Part shown: positions 1 to 30,499 of the stretch, piece after piece | Layout of the letters: each line of letters begins with the position of its first letter | Position numbering within the stretch: the stretch's first letter is position 1 | Source: Psammoneis japonica | Lineage: Eukaryota | Assembly (NCBI GenBank): GCA_008632985.1 | Contig: QPGO01000053.1 | Span: 434,001 to 468,566, forward strand | Reading direction: 5' to 3' | DNA length: 34,566 bases | Notes under the pieces: generated by a model | Databases searched by the model: none | Told to the model about the DNA's origin: nothing | What the model saw: only the letters and a program-made list of their open reading frames with translations | Made by a program: the position numbers and the translations under genes

Positions 1-94
1 CAGGAATGCGGGAGTCTGAGCACACAAAAAGGCCCATGTGCTGCATGTGCCTGGGTCAAACAGCCGATGTTGTTCCATGTGTTGCGTTGGGGCC

Positions 95-3460: not shown

Positions 3461-3949
3461 AAGGTGCTCTTGGCAATGCTCTCACCAAATGCAACATTCT
3501 CCCAAATGCAAGAGTGCTGCAGCAAGGCAAAGATGGGAAAGTGCAAGATGCAAGACATGCTGTGATCTGTGATCACAGTGAACAGTCTTTGTGACTGTCA
3601 TGAAACACTTTCTAAAAATTGCAAGAGAAGACTGCAAGTGAGGTCTCAAACCTTGTTTGGATTTCTGTCACGGAACCTTCTGTGGAGTGTTCTTTCTGAC
3701 ACCAAATGTTCCACAGAACTTTCTGCAAATGCTGCAGTCCTGGTCATTTGAATCTTCCAAATTTCCACTTGATGTTGCAAGCATGATGTGGAAGTTCACT
3801 TCAATCCCTGGTCCATGCATCCTGGCTGCATGAAACCACAACCTGGCTTTGTGCTGCTTCCAATTGACAATTGACAAAGCCGGTCATTTGACACCTGACT
3901 TGACCCAACCAGTCAAAGTGCTTTGATGACTGTGTCTGGGGGTTTCACA

Positions 3950-6900
3950 GAGTGTCAAACAACCAGAGGTGGCTTTCACAAGACAAGCAGCAAGAGGTGC
4001 ACATTTTTGGTTGTGAAAATTGCCATGTTGAGGAAAAGCACAACCTGGTTTGTGCTGGAGTTGGCACAGAATTCTGCACAGACAATGTTTTGAGTGCCAT
4101 TGTTTTAAATGTTGATGTTCATCACTGTGTCAGGCATTTGTCATGCCATTGCCAATTTTGTGTGGCGCACAATGACAAAGACACAACTGCAGTTGTGGTT
4201 GCACCTTGCAACAACATTGTGGTGAATGGCTGCAAAATGACTTTGGCCCAAACATTGAGCACTGTTGCACAAAAGCGCAGCCAGGCGCAGACCAGGGATT
4301 TGTTGTTTGGGCTTGATGCGCACAAAAACTTGGGTGCCACACCCGGATTTCCATTTGTGGCTGCTCTGTTTGTCATCACCAACACACTTTTGACATGACA
4401 TGATGACGCTGCACTGTTGTTCTGTGTCAAGTTCTGAAGAGGCATCCATGGGAAACCAATGGCAAAGCATTTCATCTAAAAGAGACACAGCTGTCACAGG
4501 CACGTGGGTGTGGCACCCAGGTTTTTCATTTTTGCATGCATCAAAGAGATTTTGATTTTCTGTCATTGGAGCAAAAGCTCTTGAATGAGAGCCAAAATGA
4601 CTGCAATTGATTGTGTTGACACTGTCATGGATTCAACATGGATGCTTGTGTCAGTTGTCAACAGCCATGTGCTCTGCATGAAAAAAACAATTTCTTGGTC
4701 AAATGCACAACTTCCTTGTTTGTAAACAAATCCCGGGTGTGGCACCTTGGCATTTTGCACCAAGACCAAATGACAACTCATCCTCATTCAATCCACACTG
4801 GATTGCCGGCAGTTGCCAGCCAGCCTCTCATTTCAAATGTGGTTGCACATCAGCTGCGGGGACTTCAAGGTTTTGTGTGCCAAATTTTGCGGGGCTCGGC
4901 TTTTTGAAATTTTGATTTTTTCCAAACACTGCAAACCGCAATGACACTCAACAATCACCATTGAAGCTGCTGTCAATGGGACAACAGAATGGACACAAGC
5001 ACAATTGGAGCCACTTCATTTTGTTCGTGAACTTGTGGCACAATGGTGCCCAGCACCAAGGCTGCAACCAACAAAAATAGAAGGCAAAGAAGGCTTGCAT
5101 TTGAAGCTGGGGCAACAAGCACAATGTGATGCATTCCACATGCATGCTTTGAATCCAACAATCACAGCATGACCCGCCTTGTGAAAAATTGTGGAAGGAG
5201 ATGAGAGTGCTCCACTGCAACGTTGCATTGAAAGTCACTTCAACCTGAGCAAAGATTGCAGGGAAGAGTGCAAAGTGTTGGCACATCACTGCCCCCCCCA
5301 AGCTTGCGCAATGCAGCTGCAACAAAGATGGCAAGGTGATGTGCAAGTTCTGGAATCACACGACTGCTCCATGGCTGAAGATTGCAACCACTCTCTGAAA
5401 AGAATTCAAACATGTTTGTGCAAGTGCTAGCCTGCCAGCACAACAGAGCCAAGTGCAATGCAACACCGTCATCGTGACATCAATTCTTTGATTGGGCAAC
5501 ATTTTCTCTTTGGAGGAAGCTTTCACAATGGTGAAGAATGGCAAAAGACAAGAATTGGAGATCCGCGAAGCACTTGAAGACATCACAGAATTCTCAGACC
5601 GCACAAGAATTTTTCACAACAAAGCAACATTGGACAACGGACGTGCTCCAGCCACACGTGTGAACCAAATTGCGTGCAAAAACAAGATCTGCACAATTTT
5701 TGCGTGGTCTCTGACTTTTGACCTAAATTTCTCCACCAAAAGCATGGATTTGTCCAAATTTCAATGTTTTGGCTGCAACACTGACAAGACTCACATCAGC
5801 GTTGCAATGTCATTGTTTTTGTGCCACCCATGTTTTTCATTGCGACAAACAAGCTGCAACACAACAGATGATTTTTGGCAAAAACATTGCCATTTGTAAG
5901 TGCACTTTGCAGTTGGAGATGTCAATGTGAAACAATTTTTTATGATGCTGTCCAGCAGGTGTTCTGCCTTCAAAGAAATCTCTGCAGCCAATGCACTGAT
6001 GCAGAATCAGCATTGAGTCCACTGAGGAAGTTTGTGATGCACATCCCATGAGGACTTGAACACAAACAAAAAAAGCATTTAAATGTGCATGTTCTGGACA
6101 CCTGTGAAAGCCCATTTGCTCAAGTGTTTTGCATGAAAATGCTCCATGCACGAGAGATGCACGTTTGTCATTTTGTGCATCACCTGGGACTGGAACATGT
6201 CAAAGATTGCATGAGCAGCTGTTGTTCACAAGGAGAACAAAGTTGAAACATGGGTGGCTTGCCTTGGTTTCTGAGCCTCATTTCACAGTTGCAAAGACAC
6301 TGCTGCATCAGATGCAGCAATGCTCTGATGCAAAAGCTTTTGAACATCGTGGCAATGATTTTCTTAACTTCTGCATGGAGAAGGTGATGGGAGACAAGGC
6401 TTTGCACTGCTCTTTCTTGAAAACAGCCCAAGAGAATGGCAGCAAATGAATGGCCATTGCATTGCTGAGGTGTGTGTGTGTGGTGGAAGAAGAATCTCAT
6501 GAAAAAGGTTGTCCACACCTGAGCCACAGCAGAGCACCAAAAATGCAGAAAGCAAACTGCAGATCGTAGAGTGAAGGGAGTGCAAAAGCAGTGTTCAGAA
6601 TGGAGCTCTCATGGCAAAATCTGAAAAAGTGACAAAAGAGCATGCATCAAAGAAGAGAGTGGCAGATCAAGCAAAAATGACAAGAAAAAGAGGAGCAAAA
6701 CAAAGCAGACATGCGCCATTTTGCAACATGCTGCATGATGCATTGGCAGTGCCAATGACTCCAACAGATGTTGATTTTGAAAGGATTCGACATTGTGCAT
6801 GGTGCTGTTTTTGGATCCGTTCATTGAAAAAGCTTCGCCCCACAAAATTTGGCATGCAATGGTTCGAAGTCTCCTCAGAGGCTGCAGGAATGTGCTAGAA

Positions 6901-7500
6901 GTGAGAGGCCGGCCAGCAACTGATCCAGCGCTGATTGAACATGGCCTGTCTGTCCTGTCATTTGATTGTGTGTTCACGGGACAAAGGAGCAATGCACATG
7001 ACAAAACACGGCGCAGCACCTCAAAATCATTTGCACATCTTTTTGTTGCATTTGGGTGGTTTCAAAAGACCCGCAGTTGTCCTTGCAAAACACAAACACC
7101 AAATTTGCCCATTTTTAAAATGCTGCAGACATTTGTTGTTAAAGACATTTCTCTCATTGAGTGCATTGCACAAAAAATGTCTGCTGCCCACAAGTGTTTT
7201 TGTCGCTGCACAAAATGCCCCCCAAGTCTGCGATTCCTGCCTCCTGGCCTTGCCAAAGTGAGACCTGGTTTTCAGTGCCTTGCAACAATTGACAGACCCA
7301 GTCATTTGGCACCTTTGGTCAACCCAAGCAGACAGAACATGCTCCCATTTCTTTGGCACGCATTTGACTGGGCAGATTCAGAGAGCTGTTTGTGCACAGC
7401 AGAAGAAACCACACACTCCAGCTCACAAGTTTGGGCAGGTCTTGTCTGTCAAGAAGTGCTTTTTTCATTCTTTGGTTTTCTTGCCCTGGTGTCATGACTT
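3950..7500 (+). pseudogene. Unclassified decayed coding remnants, probably from a repeat element
   Basis: Broken protein-like frames (5191-5430, 5492-5899, 6129-6449, 6793-7497) in TA-depleted DNA. No family recognised. Confidence 0.3.
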
Positions 7501-10249
7501 CTCTTCCATCCAATCAGCAAAGTGTTTTGGCGCTTCTTTCATGGATTGTTCTTCTTTGTCAACAAAAAACAAAAAGAGGCCGCAAAGCGGCCAGCACTTG
7601 ATTTGTGCCATGTGGCTCATCCTGTCCAAGTGATCTCAAGCATGGAGTGTGTGGTCCTTAGACTGCGCAGGTGTGCACGGGCATGAGTGCAAGCAGAAAT
7701 GTTGCAGACTCAGCATTGTTTCAGTGGAAGGAGGCTTGATTTGTACCAGCACACAATCTGCACCATGTTCTGCATGCAATCATTGATTTGTCCTGGCTTG
7801 TGTGGGTTTTGCACAACATGGGGTTTTCCAATGATTCAAATGCTCACAATGAGACAGAACACCCCAAAACAAGTCTGGAATCTGTGAAAAAAAAAGCCCT
7901 GTTTAATGGTCTGAACAGCTCTGTCATGAAGCGCTTCTCAAAATGTCTGCATGTTGCACATGGCAAAAAATCTGCTGTTGACAAAAAAGAGTCACTGTGG
8001 ACAAAACAGAGAATTCTGTGTCAATGCTGCACACTGGAGTGCTGCCAATCAACAGCTTTTCCTGCAGGGCATGGCCAGTTGCACACTTGCATTGAACCCA
8101 GGTGTGCACAATCAGCCAGCCCCACCCCGGCCAACTCACATCATTTGTGTCCCTGCCATGACCTCTTTCATCCAACATGACATCACCAGCAGTGCACCGC
8201 CCATGTGCATTTCTGTGTTTTTCCCTCCAATCAACCAAAGCCAGCATTTGAACTTCATTCTTGCCAGATGTGTTGATTCATTTTGAAATTTTGGCACTTG
8301 TCCAGACATTTTTGCACACATTTTTGCAATTCAAAGGCACCAACAACCATTGGATCCTCAACATGGCAAACTTTCGCAATGTTTGCACCACTGTGCAACT
8401 TCTTGCAGCCAGTCACTTGGTCAAGGCAGTGCCGCAGTCCTCACACATGCCCAACGACTTGTGTTGTGTGTTTGCACAGAGGAGGAAGAAGAGGTGGCAG
8501 CCTGAACAGAAGATCCTGGATCTTTGCTGTTACACTCAACCACACAGTGTTGCAACATCAAAAAATGTTGCCAAAATTTCAAAAAGGTGAAGGAAATGTT
8601 CATCATGTGATTGTGAGTGTAAATTTAATTTGTGGTTGTTTGTCACAATGACCATGCCCAAAAGAACAATTGAGACAAACACATGCCATGAAAAGGACAT
8701 CAAAAATTTAAAATGAAGAAAACCGCTCATTTGCATCATGACATGGGTTCACTGTTTCCACCTCTGATGTGTGGCTGGGAGATTTGGATGAAGACCTTGT
8801 CATGCATGCAGCACACATGGTGCAGCCATCAAGTGCTTTCTGAAAAACTCTGAAGACACTGAAGACAAGGCAAGACCACAGCTTTGTCTGTTGGTGATTG
8901 CTTTGTGGATCTGAAAGTGACCAAGATGGTGGTGCTTGACAACAAGCCTGTGATTGAGGACAAACCTTGTGGTTGGAACTGGCTCTGCTCATTCCGCGTG
9001 TTGGGCAGATCCAGATGCTCAATTTGGTCTGCCACAAGCTGCTGGAAACCTTTGTGGCATGTGGAAATGAGGACACATGGGACAGGGTGTGGAAAAGGAG
9101 GAGGAGGAGGAAGTGGAGTGTGAGGAGAGAGTCAAGCATGCGGATTTGTCAAAGGGGCAGAATTGCCCAGCTCCAACTTGGAACAAAGCTGTGATGGAGT
9201 CAGCAGTGTGCACAGAGTGGAAGACATGTGTGAATGCCAGAGCCTCCACAGAGCCCAGAAAGCACCAGCAAGAAAAAAAAAGCTGCTGCTCACAATGCAC
9301 AGCACTGTTTCTGTTGTGGTGGGCAGGAAGTGCAGTGGATGCCAGGACTGCATCCATGATGTGTTCATCACCATGCCATTGGATTGGCTGAACATGACAG
9401 TCTTCAGTCAACTCAGTGCATGCTCCAATTTTCCTTGGAAGCACTTGCAGTGCTGTGAGCCATTGGGCCTCAGAGTGGGGATGTGGCATGGTGACGTCTT
9501 TTAGAAAGCTCACACCTGTGCCCAAACTGAGTTGTGTCCACAACATCATTGCAATCTTGCTGACACATCAGTTGTTGTTCCTGTGCCTCAAAGGTGCTGA
9601 AGGAGTTGTGTCATCTGTCCAAGGCCCTGCTCGACATCCAGAGATCTGAAGACTCCACCACCTGAGGAGGCTGGCACCTTGGCATCCTGTGGCAGCAACT
9701 CTTCATTGTCCAAAACAAGTTTTGAAAGTTTGTCTGAAGGGTCCATCAAGACAGAATCATGGCAAGATGATGCCCCACTCATCTTTGGCTGTGAAAATGG
9801 GATTGATTCACTCAATTGCATCCCCAGTGTGAAGGAACTCCATCTTGTGTGACTTGAATCCTGGCATGAGGAACTCGTCCTGTTTGTCATCATCCTCTTG
9901 AGTCTCGTCCATCAGACTGCAGTGCACTTCATCACCCAGAGTTTGTTGTTGCCGCACTTCAAGCATTTCTTGCTGTTGTTCCTTTTCTTCTTCTGTGCTT
10001 TCTGCTCTTGATCTTTGGCATGTTGCAGAACCTTTTGGGGACATTCAAGTCCATCAAGACCATGATTTTGTCACTCTTCTTGACCTTGTGGTGGAGTTGT
10101 TTCTCACCAAATCTCCAGGTGCTCTGGACACCATGCCATCTCATTGTCACCCTTGTTGCAAAAGGGCAGCAGAGTCAAGTGTTTGCAGTTCACCAAGCCC
10201 AACATGATGACAATGTGTCGGGTGATGACAGGGAGTCCTGCTGCAGCCA

Positions 10250-11130
10250 ATCACTTTCTGGTGCACCCTGAGTCACCTGCAATTGCACTGCTGTGTGTTG
10301 CACCAACCGCTGCATGTCTTGCAATGACAACAAGCCACTGGAGTGCATGATTTTTGCCAGATTTGTGAGGTTGCAAATTTGTTGTCCGTTGATGTCATGC
10401 TGGGCCAACTTGTTGCACACATCAGTGAATTGGAGTCTTGTGGTGGCAAACATGCTTTCCCAGATGTGTGCTCATGACAACTGGTCAAGATTGGGATGAT
10501 TGAGTTGCAGCATGACATGACTGAGGATTGCTGGGTCCAAGACCTGTGGTCGGTTGGCCCTCAGGAAGAGAATCCCATGGCAGCAGTCGAGCAGTCTCAA
10601 GAACACACCAACAATGGCAGAGCATTCCAAATCATTGCCGCAGGCAGCCAGGAAGATCTTGCACTGTTGAAGTGCAAGACTGTGTTCCACCACATGACCC
10701 ATGCACAGATGAGACGCAGATTCTCCTCAATGCTGCTCAATTCTGTTCCAAGCTCCCCAAGTTCCAACACACAGAGCAGGCACCAGGCATGTTCTGCATG
10801 GATCTTGGCGGTCAATGTCTTCCCCACCCTGGTCTGCAACATGCCAGGATGACCATCCACCATGCTTGCCATCAATCAAGTTGCCAAGCAGGGTCTCCAC
10901 CAAGGTGTTGAACACCTGTGAGAGGATCTCCAGCATGTTGTCCAGCAAATGCAAACAGCTCATCATTGCCTGCTTGTCAAGTGCACACTCTTCCAGGTCA
11001 TCAACACCAATGCAAACAAAGTCTTTGAGGTTGAGACTGTGCACGTGCACAACTGGCAAGCAGCTTGTCTCTTTGCAATGTTGCACATGCAGGCTGAGGC
11101 AGCTGCGCTTTTTCTTGGCAACTTCCAAGT
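10250..11130 (-). pseudogene. Decayed AAA+ ATPase fragment
   Basis: GNLIDGKHGG; disrupted Walker A GHPG...VGKTLTAK; GELGTELSSIEENL; WNTVL; IFLAACGNDLECSAIVGVFLRLLDCCHGILFLRANRPQVLDPAILSHV, matching the FLRLLEYY.GILFLTTNR...D.A..SR signature with Y->C and R->H. Confidence 0.88.
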
Positions 11131-11149
11131 GTGGCTCTGGAAGACAAAT

Positions 11150-12286
11150 CAGGCCATCACATTTGACGGGTTGATGGACAGCAATTCACTGTTTCTTGCC
11201 AGTGATGCTGGCACCATCTGTTTCACAAGCTTCCTGGATTTTCTCACCAGCGATGCCGGCACCATCTGTTTGACGAGCTTCCTGCATTTGAAATGGGGTG
11301 GGCCAACCATTGTGGAGATTCCCGGTGGCACAGGACTGGGGATCATGATTTCCTTCTTGCAAAACATCATTGACATGGGCCCTCCTGGGCCTCACCGGGG
11401 ACAAGGTGGCAAGTTCCTGATCCTGCTGCCTGGCCATGAGAAAGCAGATCTGGATGGACTTGTTCCCTGGGGCGTGTGCACAATTGCCGAGTCACGCAGC
11501 TGTGCCGTGTGGGCATTGCTGCACGGGTTCCTGAAGGATGGCAAGCCGGGCTGTTCCAACCAACTGTTTGAAAACACATCAAGATCTGTCTGCTGAACAC
11601 AGCAGCTGCCAGTCCATCAAAGATGGAGTTTGTCATGGGCACAGGCAAGGCTTTCAATGCCATGCATGCTGCCAACTTTCATTTTTTGAAGAGCTGCACA
11701 CGGCAATTGACCATGAGCTGCTCAAGTTTCTTGACCCAGAATTGTGCAGTCAGTTCACATCAATTGGCACTGTTTGCTGCTGACACTCAGATGGAGAAGA
11801 TCCTGGAACAAGCTGCCAAGTTGGGCAATGTAACCACGTGCACCATCTTCTGGTAAAAATGCATCCAGGATGAATTCCTCTGCAAGGGCAGTCACTGGAA
11901 ACAAGGTGTGGTTGGCAACTTGCATGAGTGCCTCAAAGATCAAGGGCTTGGTGGGCACAACATTGACTCTGAGGCACAGTGCTTCTACAAGGCAACCTTC
12001 AATTCCCCCAACATGGCACAGAAGCTCATCTGCAGGGGGGCAGAGGATTGCAGTGCACCTGGGGGCATCTGGATGGCAAGGATGGCACCTGGATGGTGGC
12101 AAGAACTGCAAGCTCAACCTGCCCAAAGATGCCCCCATCAAGAAGTTCATGTTGATTGTGGTTCACAATTTGCTGCAGACACGTTCCATGCTGCAAACCA
12201 ACCAACCACATCACAGCAAGAAAAACAAGAGAGAGACAAATTGATCACAAACAGCAACGGGTCCATTGACCTCCACTTTGGGCCAT
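11150..12286 (+). pseudogene. Decayed DUF1254/DUF1214 family gene of bacterial type, truncated at both ends
   Basis: LMDSNSLFL, GPTIVEIP, DMGPPGPHRGQGGKFLIL, HGFLKDGKP, GKAFNAMHAANFHFFEEL, LDGGKNCKLNLPKDAPIKKF, QTRSMLQTNQP, NSNGSIDLHFGP. Several frameshifts. Confidence 0.85.
11192..11287 (+). repeat. 48-bp tandem duplication, two copies
   Basis: tttcttgccagtgatgctggcaccatctgtttcacaagcttcctggat followed by tttctcaccagcgatgccggcaccatctgtttgacgagcttcctgcat. Confidence 0.92.
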
Positions 12287-13034
12287 GTTTGTGAAGATCA
12301 ACAAGAACCATGGAAAGGCCTGTGTGCAAATGAATGGAGTTGGAAGAACATGGCTTTCCACAAGCTGTTGGCTTGTTGCTGATGTCAATTTCCTTGCACC
12401 CTCTCAAGCACCATTTCCAAGACTGTCCTTTTGTTGTCAAGCTCTCTCATTGGAAATTGAGGACTGTCATCAGCATCCCAGAGTCTCTGTTCTGTCACAT
12501 GGCAGTTCCGGCCGCAGTTCCTGGAGATGCAGTGCCTTGCTTTTTCAAGGATGGCCACACCAATTTCCAGCTCAGTGAGCCATCGTGGAAGAAGCAAATT
12601 TCCAATCTGGCCAAGATTCAGTTCAAGTGGATGCCAAGGCCCAACTTGTGAGGATTCCAGACCAGAAGACAATCTGCGTGAATCCTTTGACCCTGCTGCC
12701 AAGCCTTGGGAGTTTCGAAAAGTTGACATTGACGAGCTGCAATTCCATGGGAGAGAAGACTTGGACAGAATGGTGGACAAATGTGCAGAAGATCTGTTGT
12801 GGATTGCTGCAGTTGCAAACATTTTAGAGTTGTTGTGCCACAGCTTGAGCACAGCTTGACAACCATGAGCACAGCAGGAGATTCAATTGGAGTCTCTGGA
12901 TTTCCCCTCATTGTTGCTGTTTGGGACAAAGATGATGAGGAAGCAGTCAGGAGTTTTGGCATCAGAAAGAAACAGCCAAGTCAGAAAAAATTTCATTCAT
13001 TCATGCATTGGAAGCATTGCCGTTTTGGGAATGG
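12287..13034 (+). pseudogene. Decayed, 5'-truncated inverted copy of the 19415-20395 gene
   Basis: Aligns at nucleotide and protein level: FVVKLSHWK, WKKQISNLA, QFHGREDL, TTMSTAGDSIGVSGF, VAVWDKDDEE. The stop TAG reads TGG at 13032-13034. Confidence 0.95.
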
Positions 13035-13144
13035 CGCTTCTTGATGGCACAGCTGCAATGAATTGGGCACATTGTTGTTGCACAAACAGTGCTGCACTGT
13101 GCATTTCTGGTGTGCCACATCAAAACTGCGCCCTTGGACAACTT

Positions 13145-13344
13145 GTGACTTGGCAGCAACTTCTTGACTGATGACAAGCCACTTTTCCAACACATTGACC
13201 TTTCCACTCTGTGTGGTTTTTGCCAACTCACATCTGGCTGTTGACAAACATGACATCCCATGCCGGCATTTCAATGAATGCATTTGTGTTTGGTGTCCAT
13301 TTCTTGGCCACCCTTGAGAACTTTGTGGAACTTCTCAGTGTTCT
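13145..13344 (-). pseudogene. trpD: Decayed 3' fragment of trpD
   Basis: CELAKTTQSGKVNVLEKWLVISQEVAAKS matches the intact C-terminus CELAKTTLQSGKATEVLKKWIAVSQEIAAKS. Nucleotide match to ~19082-19306. Confidence 0.93.
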
Positions 13345-13349
13345 TTGAA

Positions 13350-14345
13350 ATCAGCAGTCATCAGCAGAATCACAGCCCCATTTCCATGTTGTTGGCAATT
13401 CCACCAGCCCTCCATGCTGTGCAGTCAGGATCCTTTTCATGGTGTCATGCAACGTGCACATTGTTCAAAGTCAAAAACTTGGGGGACAGCAGCAACTTTC
13501 TTGCTGCACATCCACCAGCTGCCTTGTGTGCTGGGCTCCATCATGCGCACATTGCCTGACACTCCATGACAGAGGTCCACTCTCACCACACCCAAGAAGT
13601 CTGCTGAGTCCTTTCAAATGCCCAGCACTGCAGCAGCTGGCAAATGGATGAGTTGGCTCTTTGGGCACAACTGTGGGAGAGCAACACCACGCTCTTTTGC
13701 AGCTCTGCACCTGAGCTGGACATTGGGCCCATGATCTCTTCACAGAAAAGGGCAAGCTGATTGTTCCAGCTCCTCTGCCCAGCACCACACATCCATCACA
13801 GTGCAGGAACAGAGCTGAAGAACGTCATTGTCAATGTGCTTCTTGGCCATGATGCTGGCTGCTTTAGTCTGTTCATCAAAGAAGCAAACAAATGTGTGAC
13901 GCCATGCAAAGAACTCACAATGTCACAAAAATCTGAGACTCCAAGTGCTCTTGAGCAAAATCTTTGTCAAAGTTCCATGAGGGGACAGCGCAGGCCAGCC
14001 AGCCACAAAGTTGAGGACCTGCGGATGATGCTCTTTCTTCAAAAGAAATCCATGTGTTTGTCGCATGCCTCCACTCACTTTGAACCCAGATGCAAAGCTG
14101 AGCATTCTTTAGATGGTCAAAAGTGTGCTGCAGCAGCATGCCTTTTCTGCTTGTCCAACCTGTTTTGGCCTCACTTCTTTTGCTGCAAGCTGTGCTTGGC
14201 AGATGAAAGAAGAAGCAGGTGTCTCACAGACACCACAGCTTCTTGTGTTTCAGGCCTCAAACTTCACATTGCGCTGATCCCAAAATCTGGCAGCAGTGGA
14301 GTGTGCAACACTGGGCTTGAGTTGAGGCTCCTTTGTCTGAACATG
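13350..14345 (-). pseudogene. Possible decayed gene of unknown function
   Basis: Protein-like broken frames and a possible gtgagt...aacag intron near 13870-13920, lying next to the unmutated patch at 14400-14750. Confidence 0.3.
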
Positions 14346-14533
14346 ATGACTTTTGTGGCACACTGGAGGTGTGCGCAATGATTTTCTTTTCATTGGTCCC
14401 CTCTGCTCTAGCCTGCCCCTGGCTAGAGCACGCGCGCGTGAGAAGTTCCCGTGCGACGTCACCTCTGTGCAAGTGCAGCGGGGAGTGGCGCGGGGCGGGG
14501 GGAGATGTTGTTGGCGGGAAAAATCGTCGCGCC

Positions 14534-14648
14534 ATGCTACAAATTGCTGAACACTTGGCAAAAACGCGCGTAAAGCACCTTCGTTCGCCTCTGAAGGGAA
14601 AATTTCCATTCGTTGAACTGTTGTACCAGTCCACGTAGAATTCTACAG
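14534..14648. repeat. Inverted repeat arm 1, partner 16148-16268, probably promoter sequence
   Basis: atgctacaaattgct...ttggcaaaaacgcgcgtaaagc.ccttcgttcgcctctgaagggaaaattt is the reverse complement of 16148-16268 with few differences. Confidence 0.92.
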
Positions 14649-15183
14649 AAACTCCCTCCGACGCGTCACTCGCGTCTCTCGCGCCTCTGGCTGAACAACA
14701 CGAGACAATGCGCGAAACGCCGTCGGTAGTTTGCGACAATGGCGCCACCCTTCACCGCACTTTCTGTCACTGCGATCATGTGGCACCGTCAATTAGACCT
14801 GCATGCATGACAGGTGATGTGGTTTTGATCGAAGCAAGCACATTGGAGTTGAGGTCCAAGTCAAAAAAGCATCGTGGGTTTCCTCTTGCCAGTGTTGCAA
14901 GGGATGCGTTGTGCTGTCGTCGCGATTCGCCAATAGAAGCTCAATTCAATTACACCATTCCCGGGACAATCGGTTCATTGGATGTAGATGCAAAAAGTTG
15001 GCAGTTGACCAGTTGAAGATTCCTCTGGGAGGCTGCTTCGTGTGTGATTGTTTCACCACCCTTTTTGCCGGCGGCGGGTTGCGAATGATTGCTGAGTTGA
15101 ACACTGTTGATGAATGAATGACACGACTGCAGTCATTTTGAACTTGAACATGTAGAGGCAAGCATGGCATCTGCTAAAGAGAA

Positions 15184-15735
15184 TCAGAGAAATGGGGTGC
15201 AAAACCAGAAGACAAAAGTCGGATGAAAGCTGGATGCAAAAAAGTTGTCTTTGATGTTTCTCTTCGGATGCTGCCAACTTTCCCTCTCCAATGAAAGAAA
15301 ACTAGAGAAATCTTTAGTTAGCTCAATGTTGGCAGCAAAAAGTTGTGAGATGCAGTGCTGCAATGCCACAAGAGGACAATGTTCAATCGGTGTCAGGTGT
15401 CGAAAATGCAACGATGCTGCATTTTTAAACTCTGTCGATGACAAGCATTCTAGTTGATCCTTTGACAATGCCACCACAGTTCTCAGATCTATTGCCTTTA
15501 AAACTGTAAGACAGAAACTTCTGCTCTCTTCTTCGATTTGCGACGTGAAGAGTTGAGAGCGAGCCACTCGCTCTGCCGACAGAAAAAAGGTCATGTTTGC
15601 ACTCCCGTGCCATGCATTCAATTTCTTCAACAAAATTGAACTCTGCCTTCTGGCGCATCTATCTGTCATGCAACGTTTCGCTTGATGGACTGCATTCCCC
15701 GGTTCAAGATCCCAGTCATGAGAAAGACGAGTCAT
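15184..15735 (-). pseudogene. Unknown ORF, partly mutated, diverging from the 16462 gene
   Basis: Open frame of 183 aa from ATG 15735 with no Tyr, in DNA of intermediate TA depletion. Confidence 0.35.
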
Positions 15736-16147
15736 GCGATCAATTGTTTTTCTTGAGCGCGAGCCATTTGTGGCCCTTTCATCACCTCGAACACCCACAC
15801 TGCAACACCATGTAATCAACATTCAAACAGCTTTCACAAGCTTTGGTTGTTGAAAGACAACTTAAGTCTCAATGCTGCTGAACAAAAGCAAACACTGCGC
15901 GAAACGCCAATTGGGATGTCAAAATGGCGCAAACAGAGAACAAATGTGAGTGAAAGCGCCAGCGGAAACAAAGCAAACACCACAGCTCTATTTTATTACC
16001 GTTAAGAGCATACTAAAGCAAGGGAGAGTGGTTAAGAGCTGCAGCATCGATGATAATAGGTGCCGCCATTGTCGGATACATTCCCGTGCTTCACCGTGTT
16101 GTGTTGTCGGGGGGAGTTTGTGAGTCTCAAAGCGGCAAGACTTTGCG

Positions 16148-16268
16148 CTGTACATTTCTACAGGGCTCTGGTACAAAATCGCAACGAAGAGAAATTTTCC
16201 CTTCAGAGGCGAACGAAGGAGCTTTACGCGCGTTTTTGCCAAGCAAGTGTTTAAGCAATTTGTAGCAT
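16148..16268. repeat. Inverted repeat arm 2, about 190 bp upstream of the 16462 gene
   Basis: Reverse complement of 14534-14648. Confidence 0.92.
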
Positions 16269-16461
16269 TGAAAGCGGGATCGCGCGCTCTAGAAGAGTTC
16301 TAACCCTCTATCGCTTTTATCCAATTCAAATTCGTATAACCTTCAACCTTCCTTCATTCCTTCAGAAGATGGTGTACCTATGCTCTAACTCTCTAACGAA
16401 GGCAACTAAGAGCTTCCCGATTCCCGACATTCATACTATCTCTCGAGAGTAGTATAGAGCC

Positions 16462-17443
16462 ATGTCTTTTTCAAACAAACGATCGCGAGTATCATGTTTC
16501 GACAATTACCTACTGGTAGCTTTGAAGCTCGTCGCCGATAGCAAATTTCTCGACAGCAAGGATCTCGGTCGCTTCTTACTGCTCACCTCCAAACGACTCT
16601 CCATGGAGATGTTTGACAATCGTCAAGGAGTTTGGAAGTGTTTGTGTGCGAACGAATGGAATTGGGATAATACAGTGGAAGTTGCGCGGTTCTCAGGAAT
16701 GACGGCGGAAAAGACGTTCCGCAAGCTACTTGCGCCGACCCTGGAGGGACCGGAAAGCAGGCCATTCTCCTTGCGACCTCTCAAGTACCGTCCCGAGGAC
16801 TATCTCTTTGTTGTCCAACTGTTTCATCAACCGAATGATAATCAAACGTATTTTCCCGGTGCTGCTGCCGACACGCCATTCTTTCACAAGGCTATTCCGG
16901 GAAAGTACCCCCTTTCATCTTTCTTTAACAGTGGATGCTCCTCTGCTCTGGTATTCGAGAAACCTATTTGGAAGGAACAAATACCCAAAGAAGCGAGAAC
17001 TGGTAGGACGCATTTCAATTTTCTGGCAAAGGTTCAAATCATGCGAATTCCAGACGAAATGATTATTCGTAAACTCTGTTCCGTAAGCTGCACGGATACC
17101 TTTATTACATCCAAAGTTGATGCAAGTGGGACATGCCCTTTGCTCGGTAGTCACGGTATACACCGAGACCGAGGACACAAAAATAGGGAGTGCCTATGGC
17201 AAGCGATTGATTGCTGAGCATGTGCCGGGATGCGCCGGTTTTGATTTTCATGTCGCTCTTGGCTATCGCCCAGGGACGACTGCAGAAGAAGGTGACTCGT
17301 TTGAAGTGTTTGCTCTACAAATTTTTGCCAATGTAAAGTTTGGTGGCAACACGCAACCATACCGTCAATATCAACAAACAATGGAGGAAAAAATACCCTT
17401 TGCGCATTTCTTGGAAGAGCTTCTTGCATGGGATGATAGCTAG
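16462..17443 (+). CDS. Hypothetical protein, paralog of 19415-20395, with an apparent frameshift near 17085-17150; F-box-like N-terminus possible
   Basis: ORF 16462-17217 matches the paralog to MRIPD; ORF 17117-17443 matches its C-terminus (EKIPFAHFLEELLAW versus EKVSFAHVLEALPSW). Both share the agagccATGtct start context. Confidence 0.8.
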
Positions 17444-18144
17444 AGACTCGTTTCGAGATTTCGTAGAGAATAAGGAAGATTACAGTTGTTGGGCTTCTTT
17501 GTCTCCTCCTTTTGATACGAATCCAATGATGGCGGGGATTGCAGGTTGACTGGCCCAGTTAGATGCGGTGGCCAGTGCCTCCAAAATTTCATTTCTGCAG
17601 ATTGAAAATCACGGGAAGCTAAAGACAGCTTTATTTCAATCATACCTTATCGTCCAAACCGTTTGTGCAACTGGGTCTATCTCAATCTTTGTTCTCGTAG
17701 AAGTTAGGAAAACCAAACTCTAGCTAGAGGGAGAAGTTACGGTAGAGATAGCTACTCTCTCTCTAGCATGCAGCGCAGAGCGCGCGCAGAGTAGCTAAAG
17801 AGCCGCTGTACAAGTACCCATTTTAGATCGGAGTTGACGGGGTCGAACGAATTGCGCAAAATCCGGGTTATATTGCGTAGAAATCTATTCATACAATCCC
17901 TGTAGTCTACCGGCCGGGCGTCGTCACACATCAAACATCAACCACACATACGGTACAAAGATCTGAAGGCGAGATCAAGATAGCTTGAGGTGAAGTCAAA
18001 CACGCTTCAGCTAAGGGTGAAGCCTCTTCAGCAAAAAGCCAACAGCACATTGGAAGCTATTGCTTTTGATTCAATCATAAATTACTTCAAGTTATTCTTG
18101 CACTTTTTCGTGTTACACATTCAGAGAAAGAATCATATTGCATC

Positions 18145-19306
18145 ATGTCGACTGCCTCTCTCAAGCCCTACATTGAAGTCCTTATTGAAGGTGAACGTCA
18201 CTTGACATCGGAAGAGACCGAGGCTGCCTTTGGTGAGATTCTGAAAGGAGCAGACCCCATTCAGGTTGGATCTCTATTGACATTGTTGAGAGCCCGCAAT
18301 GAAACCCCTGACGAAATCGCCGGTATGGTTCGAGCCATGAACCAAGCATGTAATTCTGTGGACTTGGCGCCCAGGAAACTTTTGGATATTGTCGGAACCG
18401 GAGGTGATGGTGCGGATACAATCAATATATCAACCGCATCTGTGGTGTTGGCTGCTGCCTGTGGTTGCACCGTGGCCAAGGCTGGAAATCGATCCGTGAG
18501 TTCAGCGTGTGGTAGTGCCGACGTGTTGGAGAAGCTGGGTGTCAAGGTTGACCTGAGTCCTTCTCAAGTGGTGGAATGCGTCGAACAGTGCAACATTGCA
18601 TTCATGTTTGCGCCCATTAATCATCCCGCCATGCGTCATGTGGCTCCTGTCCGTAAAAAGCTAGGAGTCCGTACGTGTTTTAACATTTTGGGACCCATGA
18701 CAAATGCGGCGGGAGCTCAGCGAGCCGTGATTGGAGTCTTTCATCCGTATCTTGTGGATCTCATGGCTGGTGCTCTTCAACAGGTCGGGCGTGTAGATCA
18801 TGCAGTTGTCATTCATGGCGTTGGATTGGATGAAATTAGCCCCTTGGGACCTGCAACTTTTGTGGAAGTAAGTGGCGACTTAAACATCACGCAGGAAGGC
18901 GTTCTAGTTTCCTGTGATCTCGTGTTCTCACGGTTTCGCTACTCTGTGCGAATTATAGATAAAAAATGTTGCTGCTCCGGGAGAAAAAAAGGAGTACGCA
19001 GTTGAAAAGAAAACTTTTGATCCGTTGGACGTTGGTATTGAACGATGCACCCTTGCCGAGCTCAAAGGAGGAGATCCGGATGAGAACGCTGAGAAATTCC
19101 GCAAAGTTCTTGAGGTTGGCCAAGAAATGGACGCAAAACGTAATGCAATCGTTTTGAATGCCGGTGTGGGGTGCTACGTTTATGGCCTTTCAGATTCGAT
19201 TGCCGCCGGATGTGAATTGGCGAAAACCACGTTGCAGAGTGGAAAGGCGACCGAGGTGCTGAAAAAGTGGATTGCCGTCAGTCAAGAAATTGCTGCCAAG
19301 TCTTAA
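18145..19306 (+). CDS. trpD: Anthranilate phosphoribosyltransferase, 356 aa; exons 18145-18867 and 18959-19306
   Basis: DIVGTGGDG..TINIST, VAKAGNRSVSSACGSADVLE, FMFAPINHPAM, RTCFNILGP..N, GLDEISP, IVLNAG. A 91-bp phase-0 intron GTAAGT...TAG (18868-18958) joins the two ORFs in frame. Confidence 0.96.
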
Positions 19307-19414
19307 GTCATCTGAGAGTCCAGTGTTGATGTAGCGTATTAGCAACCCATAGCGTAGTGCCATTCGAATGACGACAACGTGTGCAACTTATTACTATCGT
19401 ACCATCAAGAAGTA

Positions 19415-20395
19415 CTATTCCCAAGACGGCAACGCTTCCAATACATGAGCGAAGGAAACTTTTTCTGACCCGGCTGGTTCTTTATGATCGCAAAAACTCC
19501 TGACTACTTCCTCATCATCTTTGTCCCAAACAGCGACACTAAGGCGAAATCCAGAGACTCCAATCGAATCTCCCGCTGTGCTCATAGTCGTCGAGCTGTA
19601 CTCGAGCCACGGCACAACAACTCTAAAACTTTTGCACCCGCAGTGATCCATAACAGATCTTCCGTAGTCATTTGCCATTCTGTTCAAGTCCTCTCTCCCG
19701 TGGAATTGCATCTCGGTCATATCAACTTTTCGAATCTTCTCAGGTAGCGCAGCGGGGTCCACGGATTCGCGGTGGCTGTGGAAACAGAAATCGCGGATTA
19801 TCTTCCGGTCTGGAATCCTCATAAGTTGGACCTCAGCAATCCACTTTAACTGAATCCTGGCCAGATTGGAAATTTGCTTCTTCCACGGTGGATCACTAAA
19901 TTGGAAATCAACACAGCCGTCCTCGAAGAAGCAAGGTACCAGAGCTCCAGGAATCGCGATGTGGTAGATCGGGCAATCAGATTCAGGAATCATCGCAACG
20001 TGACAGAACGGAGACTCCGTGATACGACTGACAGTCCTCCTTTTCCAATGAGAGAGCTTGACAACAAAAAGATAGTCTTCGGGACGGTACTTGAGAGGGC
20101 GTAAGGAGAACGGCACTGGCGAAGCTAACAGTTTGCGGAAAGTCTCTTCAGGAGTCATACCCGTGAACTGCACGACTTGAGTCACATTCTCCCACTTCCA
20201 TTCGTTTGCACATAGACATTTCCATAGTTCTTGGCGATCGTCAAAAACCCCTTTGGCAAAACGTTTGGAGGTGAGCAACAACAAGCGACCGAGATTTTTG
20301 CTGTCGAGAAACTTGCTATCTACGACGAGCTTCAAAGCTGCCTGCACGTCATTGTCGAAATATGACACTCGCGATCGCTTGTCTAAACAAGACAT
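19415..20395 (-). CDS. Hypothetical protein, 326 aa, intronless; F-box-like N-terminus possible
   Basis: Intact ORF of normal composition with two paralogs in the window. FLDSKNLGRLLLLTSKRF...ELWKCLC resembles the end of an F-box motif (inference). Confidence 0.88.
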   Translation of the reverse strand: MSCLDKRSRVSYFDNDVQAALKLVVDSKFLDSKNLGRLLLLTSKRFAKGVFDDRQELWKCLCANEWKWENVTQVVQFTGMTPEETFRKLLASPVPFSLRPLKYRPEDYLFVVKLSHWKRRTVSRITESPFCHVAMIPESDCPIYHIAIPGALVPCFFEDGCVDFQFSDPPWKKQISNLARIQLKWIAEVQLMRIPDRKIIRDFCFHSHRESVDPAALPEKIRKVDMTEMQFHGREDLNRMANDYGRSVMDHCGCKSFRVVVPWLEYSSTTMSTAGDSIGVSGFRLSVAVWDKDDEEVVRSFCDHKEPAGSEKVSFAHVLEALPSWE

Positions 20396-20983
20396 GGCTC
20401 TAAGCTACTTCTATTCTCTCTAGAGATCGAGTGGATAGCGGGAAGCTGTTTTAGTTTCTGTTAGGACAAGATCCTCTACGGTATGTACCGGTACTTCTAC
20501 TTCTATTGGTTAGAGAGGCGCATCAAACGAACGCTCGCGCGACGCAAAATGTGCGTACACTGCTCAAGTTGCAAGTTTGAAAGTGATAAGTGATCGACTC
20601 TCTACCTACTCTATATAGAGTAGAGAGATAGCACTGCATGTGTATTATATAGCATATCATATTCTACAAAACACTTCTTTCTCCTCTTGTGTTATAATAA
20701 GTGGAAACGAAAAAGGAAAGCCCGAGAGGCTTCTGTCATATCTGTCAGCCCCACACGTTTTGAAATTCTATTTCTCCCTCCAATCTCCAACAAGAGAGTC
20801 ATGAGTCATCTATCGATTTGAATTGCTCTTTTGTGTTTCTACTTTAAATCTGGTTACAAAATAATAGCGCCAGAGCAGAGAGACGTTATTTCCATCGAAT
20901 CTTTTTCGTCTCGCTGTCATACACAAATCTCACAATATGCATCACGCATCACACACAAACAAGAACGCGACCCGTCGTTTTCT

Positions 20984-21387
20984 CTATTTCCCCGTAATGT
21001 CTCTTCTAATTTCCTTGGCAAAAGCTGATAGAAACCCCGGAATTCCTCTCATGGGTGGTTTCGGTGGACCTGCAGCAGACGAAGAAGCAGCGGCTTGCTT
21101 TCCCAATTCATCCAGCGTGTTGTTGATGTGCTGAGTACCCTCCTTTTTCATGGTTTCAATGCTTGTATGCGTTCGTAGGGCAAACCGTTGAAAGGTGCGT
21201 GACTCGGCGAGGCCTTTAATGAGAACCTCCTGTAAAGGAATACACGAATAAAGCGTTGATAGAGTCAAACGTACTCCAAGAACGAAACGAGAGGCATCGA
21301 AACATGCCGTTTTCGAACGCGACGGCTTCTCATCGCGGTACTTACGTTGGCGAGGTAATTTGCAAGTCTCTGGACAAACTGATTCAT
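20984..21387 (-). CDS. Small two-exon protein, 95 aa; exons 21387-21346 and 21229-20984
   Basis: A 116-bp phase-0 intron GTAAGT...TTTACAG gives MNQFVQRLANYLANEVLIKGLAESRTFQRFALRTHTSIE...DITGK. This resembles small eukaryotic proteins with a Y.ANE..V.GLANS..FQRFA.RT motif, possibly Mrx7/NCBP2-AS2-like. Confidence 0.85.
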
Positions 21388-30470: not shown

Positions 30471-30499
30471 AAAACATCAGAGATTTTTGGACAAATTGC

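Follow-up and report, generated by a model that had tools for sequence, protein, structure and literature searches.

The window, a 34,566-nt stretch of eukaryotic nuclear DNA, contains the same gene neighborhood twice, in inverted orientation. In the decayed copy (D, 12287..13344, forward strand), about 97% of the TA and 89% of the CG dinucleotides have disappeared, while the functional copy 6 kb away (I, 19083..20248, reverse strand) has kept both. It is probable that this reflects conversion of TpA to TpG or CpA, together with CpG decay, localized to silent domains that flank expressed genes, D being a dead duplicate that was hit in such a domain. The changes, which have a distinct spectrum and polarity, occur in only one copy and only in the flanking domains; non-coding DNA is affected, as are a pseudogene of cellular type and a retroelement.

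The decayed duplicate and its intact counterpart

D is a pseudogene fragment of positions 20248-19083, made up of a part resembling a gene for 326 amino acids (~12287-13034, forward strand), a spacer (~13035-13142), and a 3' fragment of a trpD-like gene (~13143-13344, reverse strand). Its intact, source-like counterpart I comprises the end of trpD exon 2, the spacer, and most of the 326-aa gene. Self-BLASTN matches 12354-13344 (+) to 20142-19083 (-) at 73.3% identity over 1067 columns, and 12287-12348 to 20248-20187 at 80.6%. In a global MAFFT alignment of D and I, 820 of 1054 aligned columns are identical (77.8%), with 133 gap columns. The preliminary description had taken the segment for an inverted and decayed duplicate that spans two genes with the spacer between them. 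The alignment bears this out, extending over the trpD 3' end, the spacer and the 326-aa gene, and it contains all five of the string pairs quoted there. In the trpD part of D, 16 nt are deleted, which shifts the frame, and there is an in-frame TGA; the other deletions relative to I measure 39, 27, 22, 3, 3, 1, and 1 nt. These indels, together with differences of 14–18% at non-target sites, identify D as a true paralog of I.

The 40 TA dinucleotides of I correspond in D to TG (17), CA (15) or another dinucleotide (5); two are deleted and one is kept (TTTTAGAG at 12825). Among the 38 that are aligned, 32 have become TG or CA and a single one survives, which sets a lower bound on the loss of at least 3.6 per TA (-ln(1/38)), against 14% change at other A/T sites. 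The earlier statement that every inspected TA was lost is therefore right as to a near-total loss, but one of the 38 remains. As a whole, D contains one TA and 10 CG in 1058 nt (TA O/E 0.013, with CA/TG in excess), and I contains 40 TA and 69-70 CG in 1166 nt (TA O/E 0.51, CG O/E 1.03). Changes are found at 40 of 76 TA sites versus 68 of 471 other A/T sites (Fisher p = 2e-12), as had been predicted, and 36 of the 40 changes at TA sites are A>G or T>C. The loss extends to non-coding DNA, again as claimed before: the 108-nt spacer of I alone holds 10 TA, and D holds one in all.

CG dinucleotides behave similarly. From about 70 in I, 25 have become CA and 22 TG, seven are kept, six are fully and one partly deleted, and the remainder have changed otherwise; counted over the 64 that are aligned, 47 are now TG or CA and seven survive. 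Change affects 57 of 126 CG sites versus 69 of 379 other C/G sites (p = 6e-9). Swaps between TG and CA also occur between I and D (18 cases). The CpG loss had been missed earlier, although it is as striking as the TA loss and accounts for more substitutions (47 vs. 32); it is present inside several of the strings quoted at the time.

The direction of change was determined with a third sequence (P, 16448..16827, forward strand), a paralog of the 5' third of the 326-aa gene (ORF 16462-17217; 75.5% identity over 383 columns in the self-comparison), the region of which is spanned by record 12 of the X2 contigs (16371-17568). P served both as the outgroup for D and I and as one member of a control pair. 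In the 176 columns that could be polarized, 31 changes are unique to D, eight to I, and 28 to P, and in this sample the I-unique changes show no TA or CG bias. I and P share seven of nine CG and two of six TA of I. For the trpD part, ten TrpD outgroups support I at 18 of 21 amino-acid differences and D at one, with two ties. The analysis that had been proposed, consisting of alignment, polarization with the 16462 paralog and tabulation per dinucleotide, thus upholds the excess at TA and places the changes on the decayed lineage. The further claim that the island copy is untouched stands only in part. Eight unique changes against 31 favor it, but two of six TA of I are TG in both D and P, so that in this small sample a few TA may be new on the island lineage or may have been lost twice, and one change on the I lineage (codon 53, Val vs. 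Gly) is contradicted by the outgroups. The island copy is, accordingly, not literally untouched. The control pair lies wholly within the island (20409-20048 vs. 16448-16827; 78.7% identity over 362 columns) and has a divergence like that of D and I; it keeps five of 13 TA and 17 of 22 CG, with balanced totals.

Could the depletion be an artifact, with modified bases miscalled as TG or CA, or with two organisms joined in a chimeric assembly? The window and the contigs of DNA run X1 do differ by several TG/CA double swaps and 1-nt indels, and the records of the runs do not state library types. However, the TA-free sequence was recovered over 5.7 kb when X1 was assembled independently from k-mers: X1 record 1 (5715 nt, 8056-13765) agrees with the TA-free copy but for 15 letter differences and five gaps. 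Both junctions between depleted and normal DNA are bridged, the left by X1 record 2 (13876-14562) and the right by X1 record 5 (21931-22325), and X1 word depth, which by the tool's own warning is not a copy number, is similar in the left flank (63.4, single Logan contig) and in the island (56.8). Miscalling would also have to contend with the indels and non-target differences between D and I, and with coherent replacement of Tyr by Cys or His in two other genes (a DUF1254/DUF1214 pseudogene and a reverse transcriptase, below). An artifact is, in light of this, scarcely credible. Between window and X1 contigs, eight of 14 difference events in the left flank fall at CpG, and three more are TG/CA swaps; this pattern suggests that decay is still under way.

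Genes and transcripts of the island

Positions 14401..22000, referred to here as the island, hold expressed host genes and have normal TA and CG contents. The trpD-like gene (anthranilate phosphoribosyltransferase; 18145..19306, forward strand) consists of exon 1 (18145-18867) and exon 2 (18959-19306), separated by an intron (18868-18958) with canonical GTAAGT..TATAG ends. Its product matches both TrpD domains above the Pfam cut-offs (Glycos_transf_3, 9.2e-67, 225.8 bits, cut-off 27; Glycos_trans_3N, 9.2e-18, 64.2 bits, cut-off 26) and aligns over its full length with TrpD proteins. Exon 2 contributes profile positions 179-252 and aligns with TrpD C-termini. Convergent with trpD is the ORF of the 326-aa gene (19415..20395, reverse strand), for which no family can be assigned: no Pfam match was found up to E 10, and a search for homologs of near-equal length gave none at E <= 0.001. 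Atlas feature matches of 0.93-0.95 to F-box clusters, with a recognition value below the benchmark, offer a lead towards an F-box-like protein and nothing firmer. Rfam at gathering thresholds gave zero matches, and a tRNA scan zero genes.

Two joints in X2 contigs, 18867>18959 (GT..AG) and 21228>21345 (CT..AC), mark spliced introns, and spliced X2 record 13 covers I and the 326-aa gene. Among the pieces listed, X2 contigs with GT..AG joints are confined to the island; stretches of flank without X2 cover were not counted as evidence of silence. Non-coding DNA of the island (1.9 kb of introns and spacers) has a TA O/E of 0.78 and a CG O/E of 1.13, so the pattern does not stem from coding selection. 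The framing of an untouched island probably has things the wrong way round: expression and spliceosomal introns mark the island as ordinary host DNA, and it is the flanks that are special, targeted DNA. An inverted repeat pair within the island (14534-14648 and 16268-16148) keeps TA and CG in both copies and is uninformative on decay.

The depleted flanks and their origin

The left domain (1..14400) has a TA O/E of 0.038, a CG O/E of 0.18, and a TG/CA O/E of 1.87. The right domain (22001..34566) is likewise depleted of TA, with a CG O/E of 0.63 at 22001-25500 and 0.30 beyond. Over the two flanks (14.4 kb and 12.6 kb), TA O/E is 0.04-0.06 and TG/CA O/E 1.62-1.87. The left border is sharp, at ~14409-14431 for TA and CG alike, and a CG-dense stretch with 20 CG per 200 nt begins exactly there; the final TA of the island is at 21982. 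Loss of TA and of CG can be separated, both at 22001-25500 (TA O/E 0.06, CG O/E 0.63) and in an intermediate zone just inside the island (14401-16000; 0.26 and 0.90), and for this reason two processes are likely. The flanks retain 77 TA, compared with 28 in the intermediate zone and 268 in the island core. The TA that survive are biased to TTAA, and TA followed by T or C has been lost most completely. For the strand edited in the D/I pair (n = 32, too small a sample to interpret), C at +1 is found in 13 edited and six unedited strands. TG versus CA strand asymmetry, taken per kb, shows no consistent skew at the scale of the domains.

Sharp island borders could also be a matter of timing rather than of targeting, the whole genome having passed through a burst of TA and CG loss and the island being younger, having arrived or been restored by conversion afterwards. 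Two elements near the island edges, one a conserved 115-bp sequence in inverted copies (14534-14648 and 16148-16268), the other palindromic and of very high word depth (21783-21895), would suit such an arrival. Against this, the island genes are expressed and contain spliceosomal introns, and the island is old, given that I and P are 21% diverged yet balanced in TA and CG. In addition, the polarized changes in D postdate its duplication from island-type sequence, and the predominance of CpG (8/14) among differences between window and X1 suggests continuing rather than past decay. This explanation is thus very improbable.

Two further sequences in the flanks record the same process. A DUF1254/DUF1214-family pseudogene (10988..12285, forward strand; DUF1254 Pfam score 24.8 bits; homologs of ~515 aa at E 3e-49) ends 2 nt before D. 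Tblastn reveals frame changes and an in-frame stop, and there is a 48-nt tandem duplication. At 16 conserved Tyr columns the pseudogene has Cys in seven, His in six, and Tyr, a stop and Asp in one each; eight of 14 conserved Arg are replaced by Gln, His, Cys, or Trp, three are kept, and three have become Glu or Met. In the right flank, a retroelement remnant (22253..24541, forward strand) was located by tblastn with P0182 (908 aa, PF00078), which aligns at 43% identity over 772 aa in one frame; the homolog search gave E 2e-73, and homology to PF00078 proteins establishes it as a reverse-transcriptase element. Its ORF piece at 23042-23971 has no Tyr in 310 residues, conserved Tyr having become Cys or His at five of six positions, and its word depth in DNA run X1, again not a copy number, is 400-1262. 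Pfam gave no match to the ORF pieces of this element; among all 135 ORFs of at least 90 aa in both flanks, DUF1254 alone exceeded its cut-off.

These neighbors bear on what marks a sequence for mutation. D and the DUF1254/DUF1214 fragment may have been cargo of a transposon or integrated virus that was hypermutated as a whole, with targeting guided by foreignness or by RNA. The left flank is an end-to-end mosaic of truncated gene pieces, in which the DUF pseudogene stops at 12285 and D, starting at 12287, picks up the 326-aa gene partway through; a retroelement with reverse transcriptase makes up the right flank; and homologs of the DUF1254/DUF1214 pseudogene include a protein from a bacterial MAG at 64% identity. 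A comparable process acts on integrated NCLDV and virophage DNA, with reverse-transcriptase and DDE Pfams enriched, according to the main text of a preprint (10.64898/2026.01.13.699255). The 135 flank ORFs, however, revealed no transposase, integrase, capsid, or other viral or transposon domain in the left flank, which was covered by a single contig at a word depth of 63.4 in the DNA run, and self-comparison showed no terminal repeats around the left domain, inside which the window begins. We consider an element-based origin unlikely, if deserving of attention.

Targeting by position or chromatin, the preferred reading, fits the sharp left border shared by TA and CG loss and the derivation of spliced transcripts from the island only. 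An expressed cluster of intron-containing genes (14.4-22.0 kb) would lie between two silent domains, and these would have undergone localized, dinucleotide-specific hypermutation. The A of TpA, on either strand, would change from A:T to G:C and leave TpG or CpA; in what is probably a second and slower process, CpG would likewise become TpG or CpA. D would have lost TA and CG because it sits in a targeted domain. The putative chemistry at TA is deamination of adenine on DNA at 5'-TA, yielding inosine that is read as G, and that at CG is deamination of 5-methylcytosine. The mark recognized would be silent, methylated chromatin rather than the origin of the sequence.

The damaged base at TA, A or T, is not decidable from the sequence, as TA>CA and TA>TG are about equally frequent (15 and 17). 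This equality would also suit a TET/JBP-type dioxygenase that oxidizes the thymine of TpA to 5-hydroxymethyl- or 5-formyluracil, which mispairs with G and gives T>C, with CpG lost from the same silent, modified chromatin; the common left border of TA and CG loss agrees with it too. 5-Formyluracil is mutagenic towards A:T>G:C, and hydroxylation of thymine in a TpA context has been reported for dinoflagellate DNA. No observation here points to a dinoflagellate as the source of the window. No sign of such an enzyme or base was found here, however, and for the related phenomenon the main text of the preprint favors an ADAT2-like adenosine deaminase (candidate Bn78255, a prediction only) (10.64898/2026.01.13.699255). 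Thymine oxidation is an improbable route on this evidence, and adenine deamination is retained as the working chemistry.

A more general proposal can be advanced only tentatively, with the balance somewhat against it: domain-wide editing of DNA, likely by adenine deamination, may erase TpA from silent chromatin of any origin, acting first on TA followed by a pyrimidine and largely sparing TTAA, beside methylation-driven CpG decay with borders shared to within ~25 bp, and may do so in more than one lineage. Next to a TrpD gene with 85% amino-acid identity, an environmental contig, whose first 13 kb represent a relative, has a patch devoid of TA at 2001-3500. None of 80 environmental TrpD loci contains a 1-kb window with a TA O/E below 0.18, from which it follows that the signature is not general around trpD in relatives; among prokaryote TrpD, identity does not exceed 53%, one chimeric MAG contig excepted. 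If the proposal is true, dead copies of the host's own genes are shredded like transposons, and the process is a general, heritable genome defense or heterochromatin mutator rather than the antiviral response of one alga.

The locus itself represents a saturated, polarized end-state for which the same contig supplies the unmutated original at a distance of 6 kb, and it adds borders sharp to ~25 bp and a partly mutated transition zone (14.4-16.0 kb). It shows, or at the least suggests, that the process strikes a copy of the host's own genes and not viruses alone, that it is not repeat-induced, and that CpG decay accompanies TA loss but is separable from it. As the same sequence occurs in two chromatin contexts, guidance by chromatin and by foreignness can be distinguished here, and the bases flanking surviving TA constitute a testable enzyme specificity, making the locus a compact test bed for candidate deaminases or dioxygenases. 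There is also a warning for annotation. In such domains, every Tyr codon of a gene turns into one for Cys or His, and TAA and TAG stops disappear, with the result that long spurious ORFs arise and homology is obscured; in the present case the reverse transcriptase escaped Pfam.

Comparison with known systems

Repeat-induced point mutation (RIP), a fungal process, converts CpA to TpA, so that TA rises; it needs duplication and mutates both copies. Both processes riddle silent or duplicated DNA with dinucleotide-specific transitions and leave a compositional footprint. However, RIP makes TA, whereas here TA is destroyed (O/E 0.013 in D, with CA/TG in excess); RIP hits both copies, whereas here one is hit (eight I-unique vs. 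31 D-unique changes); and DNA covered by a single contig of ordinary word depth is also affected. The preliminary description was correct to set the process apart from RIP, which it did on the ground that only one copy is mutated; the opposite direction of change sets it apart as well.

In silent DNA methylated in the vertebrate manner, deamination of 5-methylcytosine depletes CpG, and unmethylated CpG islands are spared. The CpG component resembles this closely: the change is to TG in 22 cases and to CA in 25, on both strands, CG sites change more often than other C/G sites, and the CpG-normal island coincides with the expressed genes. Such decay cannot by itself remove TA, the loss of which is more complete and partly uncoupled.

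The adenosine deaminases ADAR and TadA/ADAT2, which prefer a 5' U or T, and enzymes of the APOBEC type have RNA as their main substrate, or else C in DNA. Resemblance to ADAR and TadA/ADAT2 lies in a net A>G change beside a 5' T, and in editing directed against invading or repeated nucleic acid. The analogy to ADAR, TadA/ADAT2, and APOBEC-type antiviral editing has been drawn in the preprint (10.64898/2026.01.13.699255).

TpA-directed hypermutation of DNA in a eukaryote has been reported once before, in that 2026 preprint, which was the sole relevant match in a literature search for other descriptions. Its main text describes how, in Bigelowiella natans, viral DNA integrated in the genome undergoes localized TpA>TpG/CpA hypermutation (Mettrop et al., bioRxiv 10.64898/2026.01.13.699255), with 124 clusters and 324 low-TpA CDS counted. 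The hypermutable regions of mutation-accumulation lines acquired 231 mutations, of which 230 were A>G or T>C changes, each of them at a TpA, and the de novo rate in these regions was ~1000-fold above background; reverse-transcriptase and DDE Pfams were enriched among TpA-depleted CDS (10.64898/2026.01.13.699255). The TA process in the window is probably of the same kind. As far as the preprint's main text allows comparison, both systems show strand-symmetric A:T>G:C change at TpA, multi-kb clusters with TpA depletion and an excess of CpA and TpG, single-copy DNA as a possible target, reverse-transcriptase elements among the depleted sequences, and depleted sequences that are mostly unannotatable. 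TpA frequencies are alike as well, at 0.0018 in low-TpA CDS and 0.041 in all CDS of B. natans (10.64898/2026.01.13.699255) compared with 0.0026-0.0034 in the flanks and 0.045 in the island core here. The O/E values given above were computed per window, and the exact formula of the preprint may differ.

The two systems also differ. CpG is co-depleted here (O/E 0.18-0.63), while the main text of the preprint does not use the term CpG and describes no CpG-directed excess, which places the CpG component outside the B. natans phenomenon as described there. A spectrum almost confined to AT>GC does not extend to this locus, where 47 CG>TG/CA losses exceed the losses of TA. As to the origin of targets, the right flank holds a reverse-transcriptase retroelement and D copies the host's own expressed genes; unlike in B. 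natans, dead gene copies of cellular type are included, and the live original 6 kb from the dead copy allows a polarized spectrum to be obtained site by site. Borders are mapped to ~25 bp here, unlike in B. natans, and the surviving TA are biased to TTAA, while the preprint's main text contains none of the terms context, flanking, trinucleotide, or TTAA. Beyond that preprint, the present locus adds CpG decay in the same domains, pseudogene targets of cellular type, sharp borders, and the TTAA bias.

Composition of the window and its borders

Two kinds of DNA make up the 34,566-nt window. In the left flank (1–14400), observed/expected ratios (O/E) are 0.038 for TA (38 TA), 0.18 for CG, and 1.87 for TG/CA; in the right flank they are 0.064, 0.63, and 1.62 (22001–25500) and 0.045, 0.30, and 1.76 (25501–34566). 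The core of the intervening island (16001–22000) holds 268 TA, with O/E values of 0.62, 1.03, and 1.08, respectively, and G+C is near-constant over all regions (0.46–0.53). In the 1.9 kb of island sequence that does not code for protein (two introns, the spacer, and stretches between genes), O/E is 0.78 for TA and 1.13 for CG, showing that retention in the island does not stem from codon selection.

The left border (approximately 14409–14431) is sharp for TA and CG alike, and the CG count per 200 nt climbs there from 2 to 20; at the right-hand end, position 21982 holds the final TA of the island. A 9-nt perfect palindrome sits exactly at the left border (14405–14429; GCTCTAGCC, 7 nt, GGCTAGAGC), after which come CGCGCGCG and CG-dense DNA; it could be a boundary or promoter element. 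The adjoining 14401–16000 segment is a transition zone, with TA O/E 0.26, near-normal CG (O/E 0.90), and TG/CA O/E 1.39. Word depth in X1, a public DNA run assembled as Logan contigs, is 4–6 times that of neighboring bins at 14003–16670, which overlaps this zone, and transcript-like contigs over the zone carry 9–16 differences. The zone is either a small gene family in which TA loss is still incomplete or several paralogs mixed together. Inside the island, a 115-nt element occurs twice in inverted orientation (14534–14648 and 16148–16268, 84% conserved), retains TA and CG in both copies, and may be a promoter or regulatory element shared by divergent genes. The right edge of the island contains a 113-nt self-complementary element (21783–21895), perhaps MITE-like; the word depth of 4492 in the bin that holds it (21340–22006) marks it as a very abundant short repeat. 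The depleted right flank includes a tandem repeat at 30075–30448 (period 178 nt, 2.1 copies, 82% matches).

The depleted sequence is real. A 5715-nt X1 contig reproduces 8056–13765 with 15 letter differences and five gaps, and further X1 contigs bridge the left border (13876–14562) and the right TA border (21931–22325); as X1 is possibly the source sample of the window, this is an independent assembly rather than an independent sample. X1 word depth is 63.4 in the left flank and 56.8 in the island core, values that are not copy numbers and serve here only to indicate that no further contigs at least 90% alike have piled up. The 14 events separating window and X1 in the left flank comprise eight CpG/TpG or CpG/CpA alternatives, three TG/CA double swaps, and three others, as continuing decay at hypermutable sites among alleles or sub-lines would give. 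Adjacent TG↔CA double changes are found at 9828–9829, 11851–11852, 14231–14232, and 14910–14913, and look as if a former TA or CG had been resolved differently in two alleles or sub-lines.

The island genes and their inverted duplicate

The island encodes an anthranilate phosphoribosyltransferase (trpD, 18145–19306; Pfam Glycos_trans_3N and Glycos_transf_3), interrupted by a 91-nt intron (GTAAGT..TATAG), and, convergent with it on the minus strand, a 326-residue protein (19415–20395). The latter matched no Pfam family and no homolog in a near-length search; an Atlas match is a lead toward an F-box-like protein. Public run X2 is labeled "DNA?", and its contigs skip GT..AG introns (18110–21527), making it in effect a transcript assembly. 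They join exactly over the trpD intron (18867>18959) and at a second joint (21228>21345; CT..AC, that is, GT..AG on the minus strand), and among the listed pieces X2 contigs fall only on island genes. A single X2 contig spans both convergent genes, the 3′ ends of which therefore probably overlap or abut in RNA.

Self-BLASTN and global alignment confirmed that, as the preliminary description had it, 12287–13344 (+; copy D) is an inverted duplicate of island DNA (20248–19083; copy I), and all the strings quoted there are present in the alignment, which has 1054 aligned columns, 77.8% identity, and 133 gap columns. Copy D covers the end of trpD exon 2, the 108-nt spacer, and most of the 326-residue gene, and is thus a DNA-level duplicate rather than a retrocopy. 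Of the 40 TA in I, D has TG at 17, CA at 15, and other dinucleotides at five, with two deleted and one kept. TA positions were proposed to mutate more often than other A/T positions, and they do (40/76 versus 68/471 changed; Fisher p = 2e-12). The spectrum as first described holds for TA, but was incomplete in that loss of CpG was missed: the 70 CG of I became CA (25) or TG (22), were kept (7), fully deleted (6), or partly deleted (1), the remainder being other changes, and CG positions changed in 57/126 cases versus 69/379 for other C/G (p = 6e-9). Non-target sites differ by 14–18% (90 transitions, 47 transversions), indicating that the duplication is old. The lower bound of the excess is 3.6 events per TA (−ln(1/38)) and 2.2 per CG (−ln(7/64)), against 0.14–0.18 differences per non-target site. 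The observation is confirmed, far beyond chance. Eighteen TG/CA swaps between D and I are expected if new TA or CG in D were quickly resolved either way or, alternatively, if ancestral TA or CG were resolved differently in the two copies.

A control pair lying wholly within the island, 20409–20048 and P (16448–16827, a paralog of the 5′ third of the 326-residue gene), shows 78.7% identity across 362 columns and has thus diverged to the same extent as the D/I pair. It keeps 5/13 TA and 17/22 CG, and its totals are balanced (13 versus 14 TA, 22 versus 26 CG). When P is added to the comparison, the 176 columns common to all three sequences contain 31 changes unique to D, eight to I, and 28 to P. 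P shares seven of nine CG with I; of six TA in I, a small and not fully clean sample, two are shared, two are TG in both P and D, and two are TT in P. Ten full-length TrpD outgroups (alignment A1) polarized the trpD part, where 21 amino-acid differences favor I at 18 sites and D at one, with two ties; the exception is codon 53, which is Val in I and Gly in D and 10/10 outgroups. D also carries a 16-nt deletion and an in-frame TGA. Together these mark D as a pseudogene fragment, with changes overwhelmingly on its lineage, bearing out the earlier assignment of the changes to the decayed copy.

Mutational processes in the flanks

Upstream of D, and ending 2 nt from it, lies a DUF1254/DUF1214 pseudogene (10988–12285, +; homologs of approximately 515 residues, E 3e-49, 55–68% identity); the left flank is therefore a mosaic of gene pieces. 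The frame of the pseudogene changes and is interrupted by an in-frame TGA stop, and 48 nt (11192–11289) are duplicated in tandem. Tyr is present in at least 70% of 22 homologs at 16 alignment columns, of which seven read Cys in the pseudogene, six His, and one each Tyr, stop, and Asp; 14 conserved Arg columns read Gln (3), Arg (3), His (2), Cys (2), Glu (2), Trp (1), and Met (1). At the protein level, TA>TG/CA turns Tyr (TAY) into Cys (TGY) or His (CAY), and CG>CA/TG turns Arg (CGN) into Gln, His, Cys, or Trp. In the right flank, a reverse-transcriptase retroelement remnant (22253–24541, +) aligns in one frame with a 908-residue PF00078 protein (43% identity over 772 residues). Tyr is absent from a 310-residue ORF piece, which contains 17 Cys and 21 His; in seven homologs, 1.8–3.4% of residues are Tyr. 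Six Tyr columns common to at least four of the seven homologs show Cys (3), His (2), and Trp (1). X1 word depths of 400–1262 identify the stretch as a repeated element; its TA are gone and its CG only partly depleted (O/E 0.63). Pfam found nothing on the ORF pieces despite the 43%-identical homolog, so hypermutation hides homology.

Two dinucleotide-specific, strand-symmetric transition processes are thus shown, confined to the flanking domains. Both act on coding and non-coding DNA, their targets include single-contig DNA at ordinary depth as well as repeated DNA, and neither the duplicate of host genes nor a retroelement is exempt. TA is lost and two thirds of CG kept at 22001–25500, and three quarters of TA are lost and CG kept at 14401–16000; the two losses are therefore separable, and that of TA is the faster or earlier process.

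TTAA accounts for 25 of 77 surviving TA in the flanks (1–14400 and 22001–34566), compared with 11/268 in the island core (Fisher p = 1e-10) and 404/6040 among TA creatable by single transitions of flank TG/CA (p = 3e-11). None of the survivors is ATAT or ATAC/GTAT, and one is GTAC. Per strand, the A of 5′-TA is most spared when A follows and least spared when T or C follows. The same pattern can be put in terms of position −2, where T protects and A leaves the site exposed; because TA is palindromic, survivors cannot separate the two readings. The 32 polarized D/I events point in that direction as well (C at +1 on 13 edited versus 6 unedited strands), in numbers too small to call. The TTAA bias suggests that the preference of the mutator extends to the bases around TA.

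The TpA process is probably A>G change through adenine deamination on DNA, as hypothesized by Mettrop et al. (10.64898/2026.01.13.699255); thymine oxidation with T>C mispairing would leave the same sequence outcome. CpG decay probably proceeds by 5-methylcytosine deamination. Both processes would be confined to silent chromatin, with the expressed island exempt, as under the positional or chromatin-based targeting that the preliminary description put forward as a possibility.

Related loci and comparison with known systems

Environmental assemblies commonly contain TrpD relatives with 73–88% amino-acid identity (80 loci); at none of these loci does TA O/E fall below 0.18 in any 1-kb window. 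One contig of 102 kb, assigned to a Myxococcales MAG (G001:C64, L135–L140), is chimeric: its first ~13 kb are eukaryote-like (G+C 0.41–0.62; 0.73 in the remainder) and encode a TrpD with 85% amino-acid and 73% nucleotide identity to that of the window. A TA-poor patch at 2001–3500 of this contig (O/E 0.06–0.11 for TA, 1.56–1.65 for TG/CA, 0.45–0.57 for CG), with no Pfam family above cut-off, hints, as a single short patch, that a related organism may carry the same footprint.

RIP is ruled out by the opposite direction of change, by the effect on one copy only, and by the lack of need for a repeat, upholding the contrast drawn in the preliminary description. In mutation-accumulation lines of Bigelowiella natans, 231/302 nuclear single-nucleotide mutations fell in an integrated NCLDV and a virophage region, and 230 of these 231 were transitions at TpA (A>G or T>C), with a rate of approximately 6e-7 per site per generation (10.64898/2026.01.13.699255). 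That genome has 124 clusters depleted in TpA and enriched in CpA/TpG, and 324 CDS of low TpA content, among which reverse-transcriptase and DDE domains are over-represented; an ADAT2-like deaminase was proposed (10.64898/2026.01.13.699255). The present locus fits this footprint, as set out in the main text of the preprint, quantitatively, and a full-text literature search found no other description. The phenomenon is of a kind described once, very recently, which the locus joins as a new member that is unusually informative. To that main text it adds the loss of CpG, a target duplicated from genes of the host itself whose intact original lies nearby, base-level borders, and the TTAA bias.
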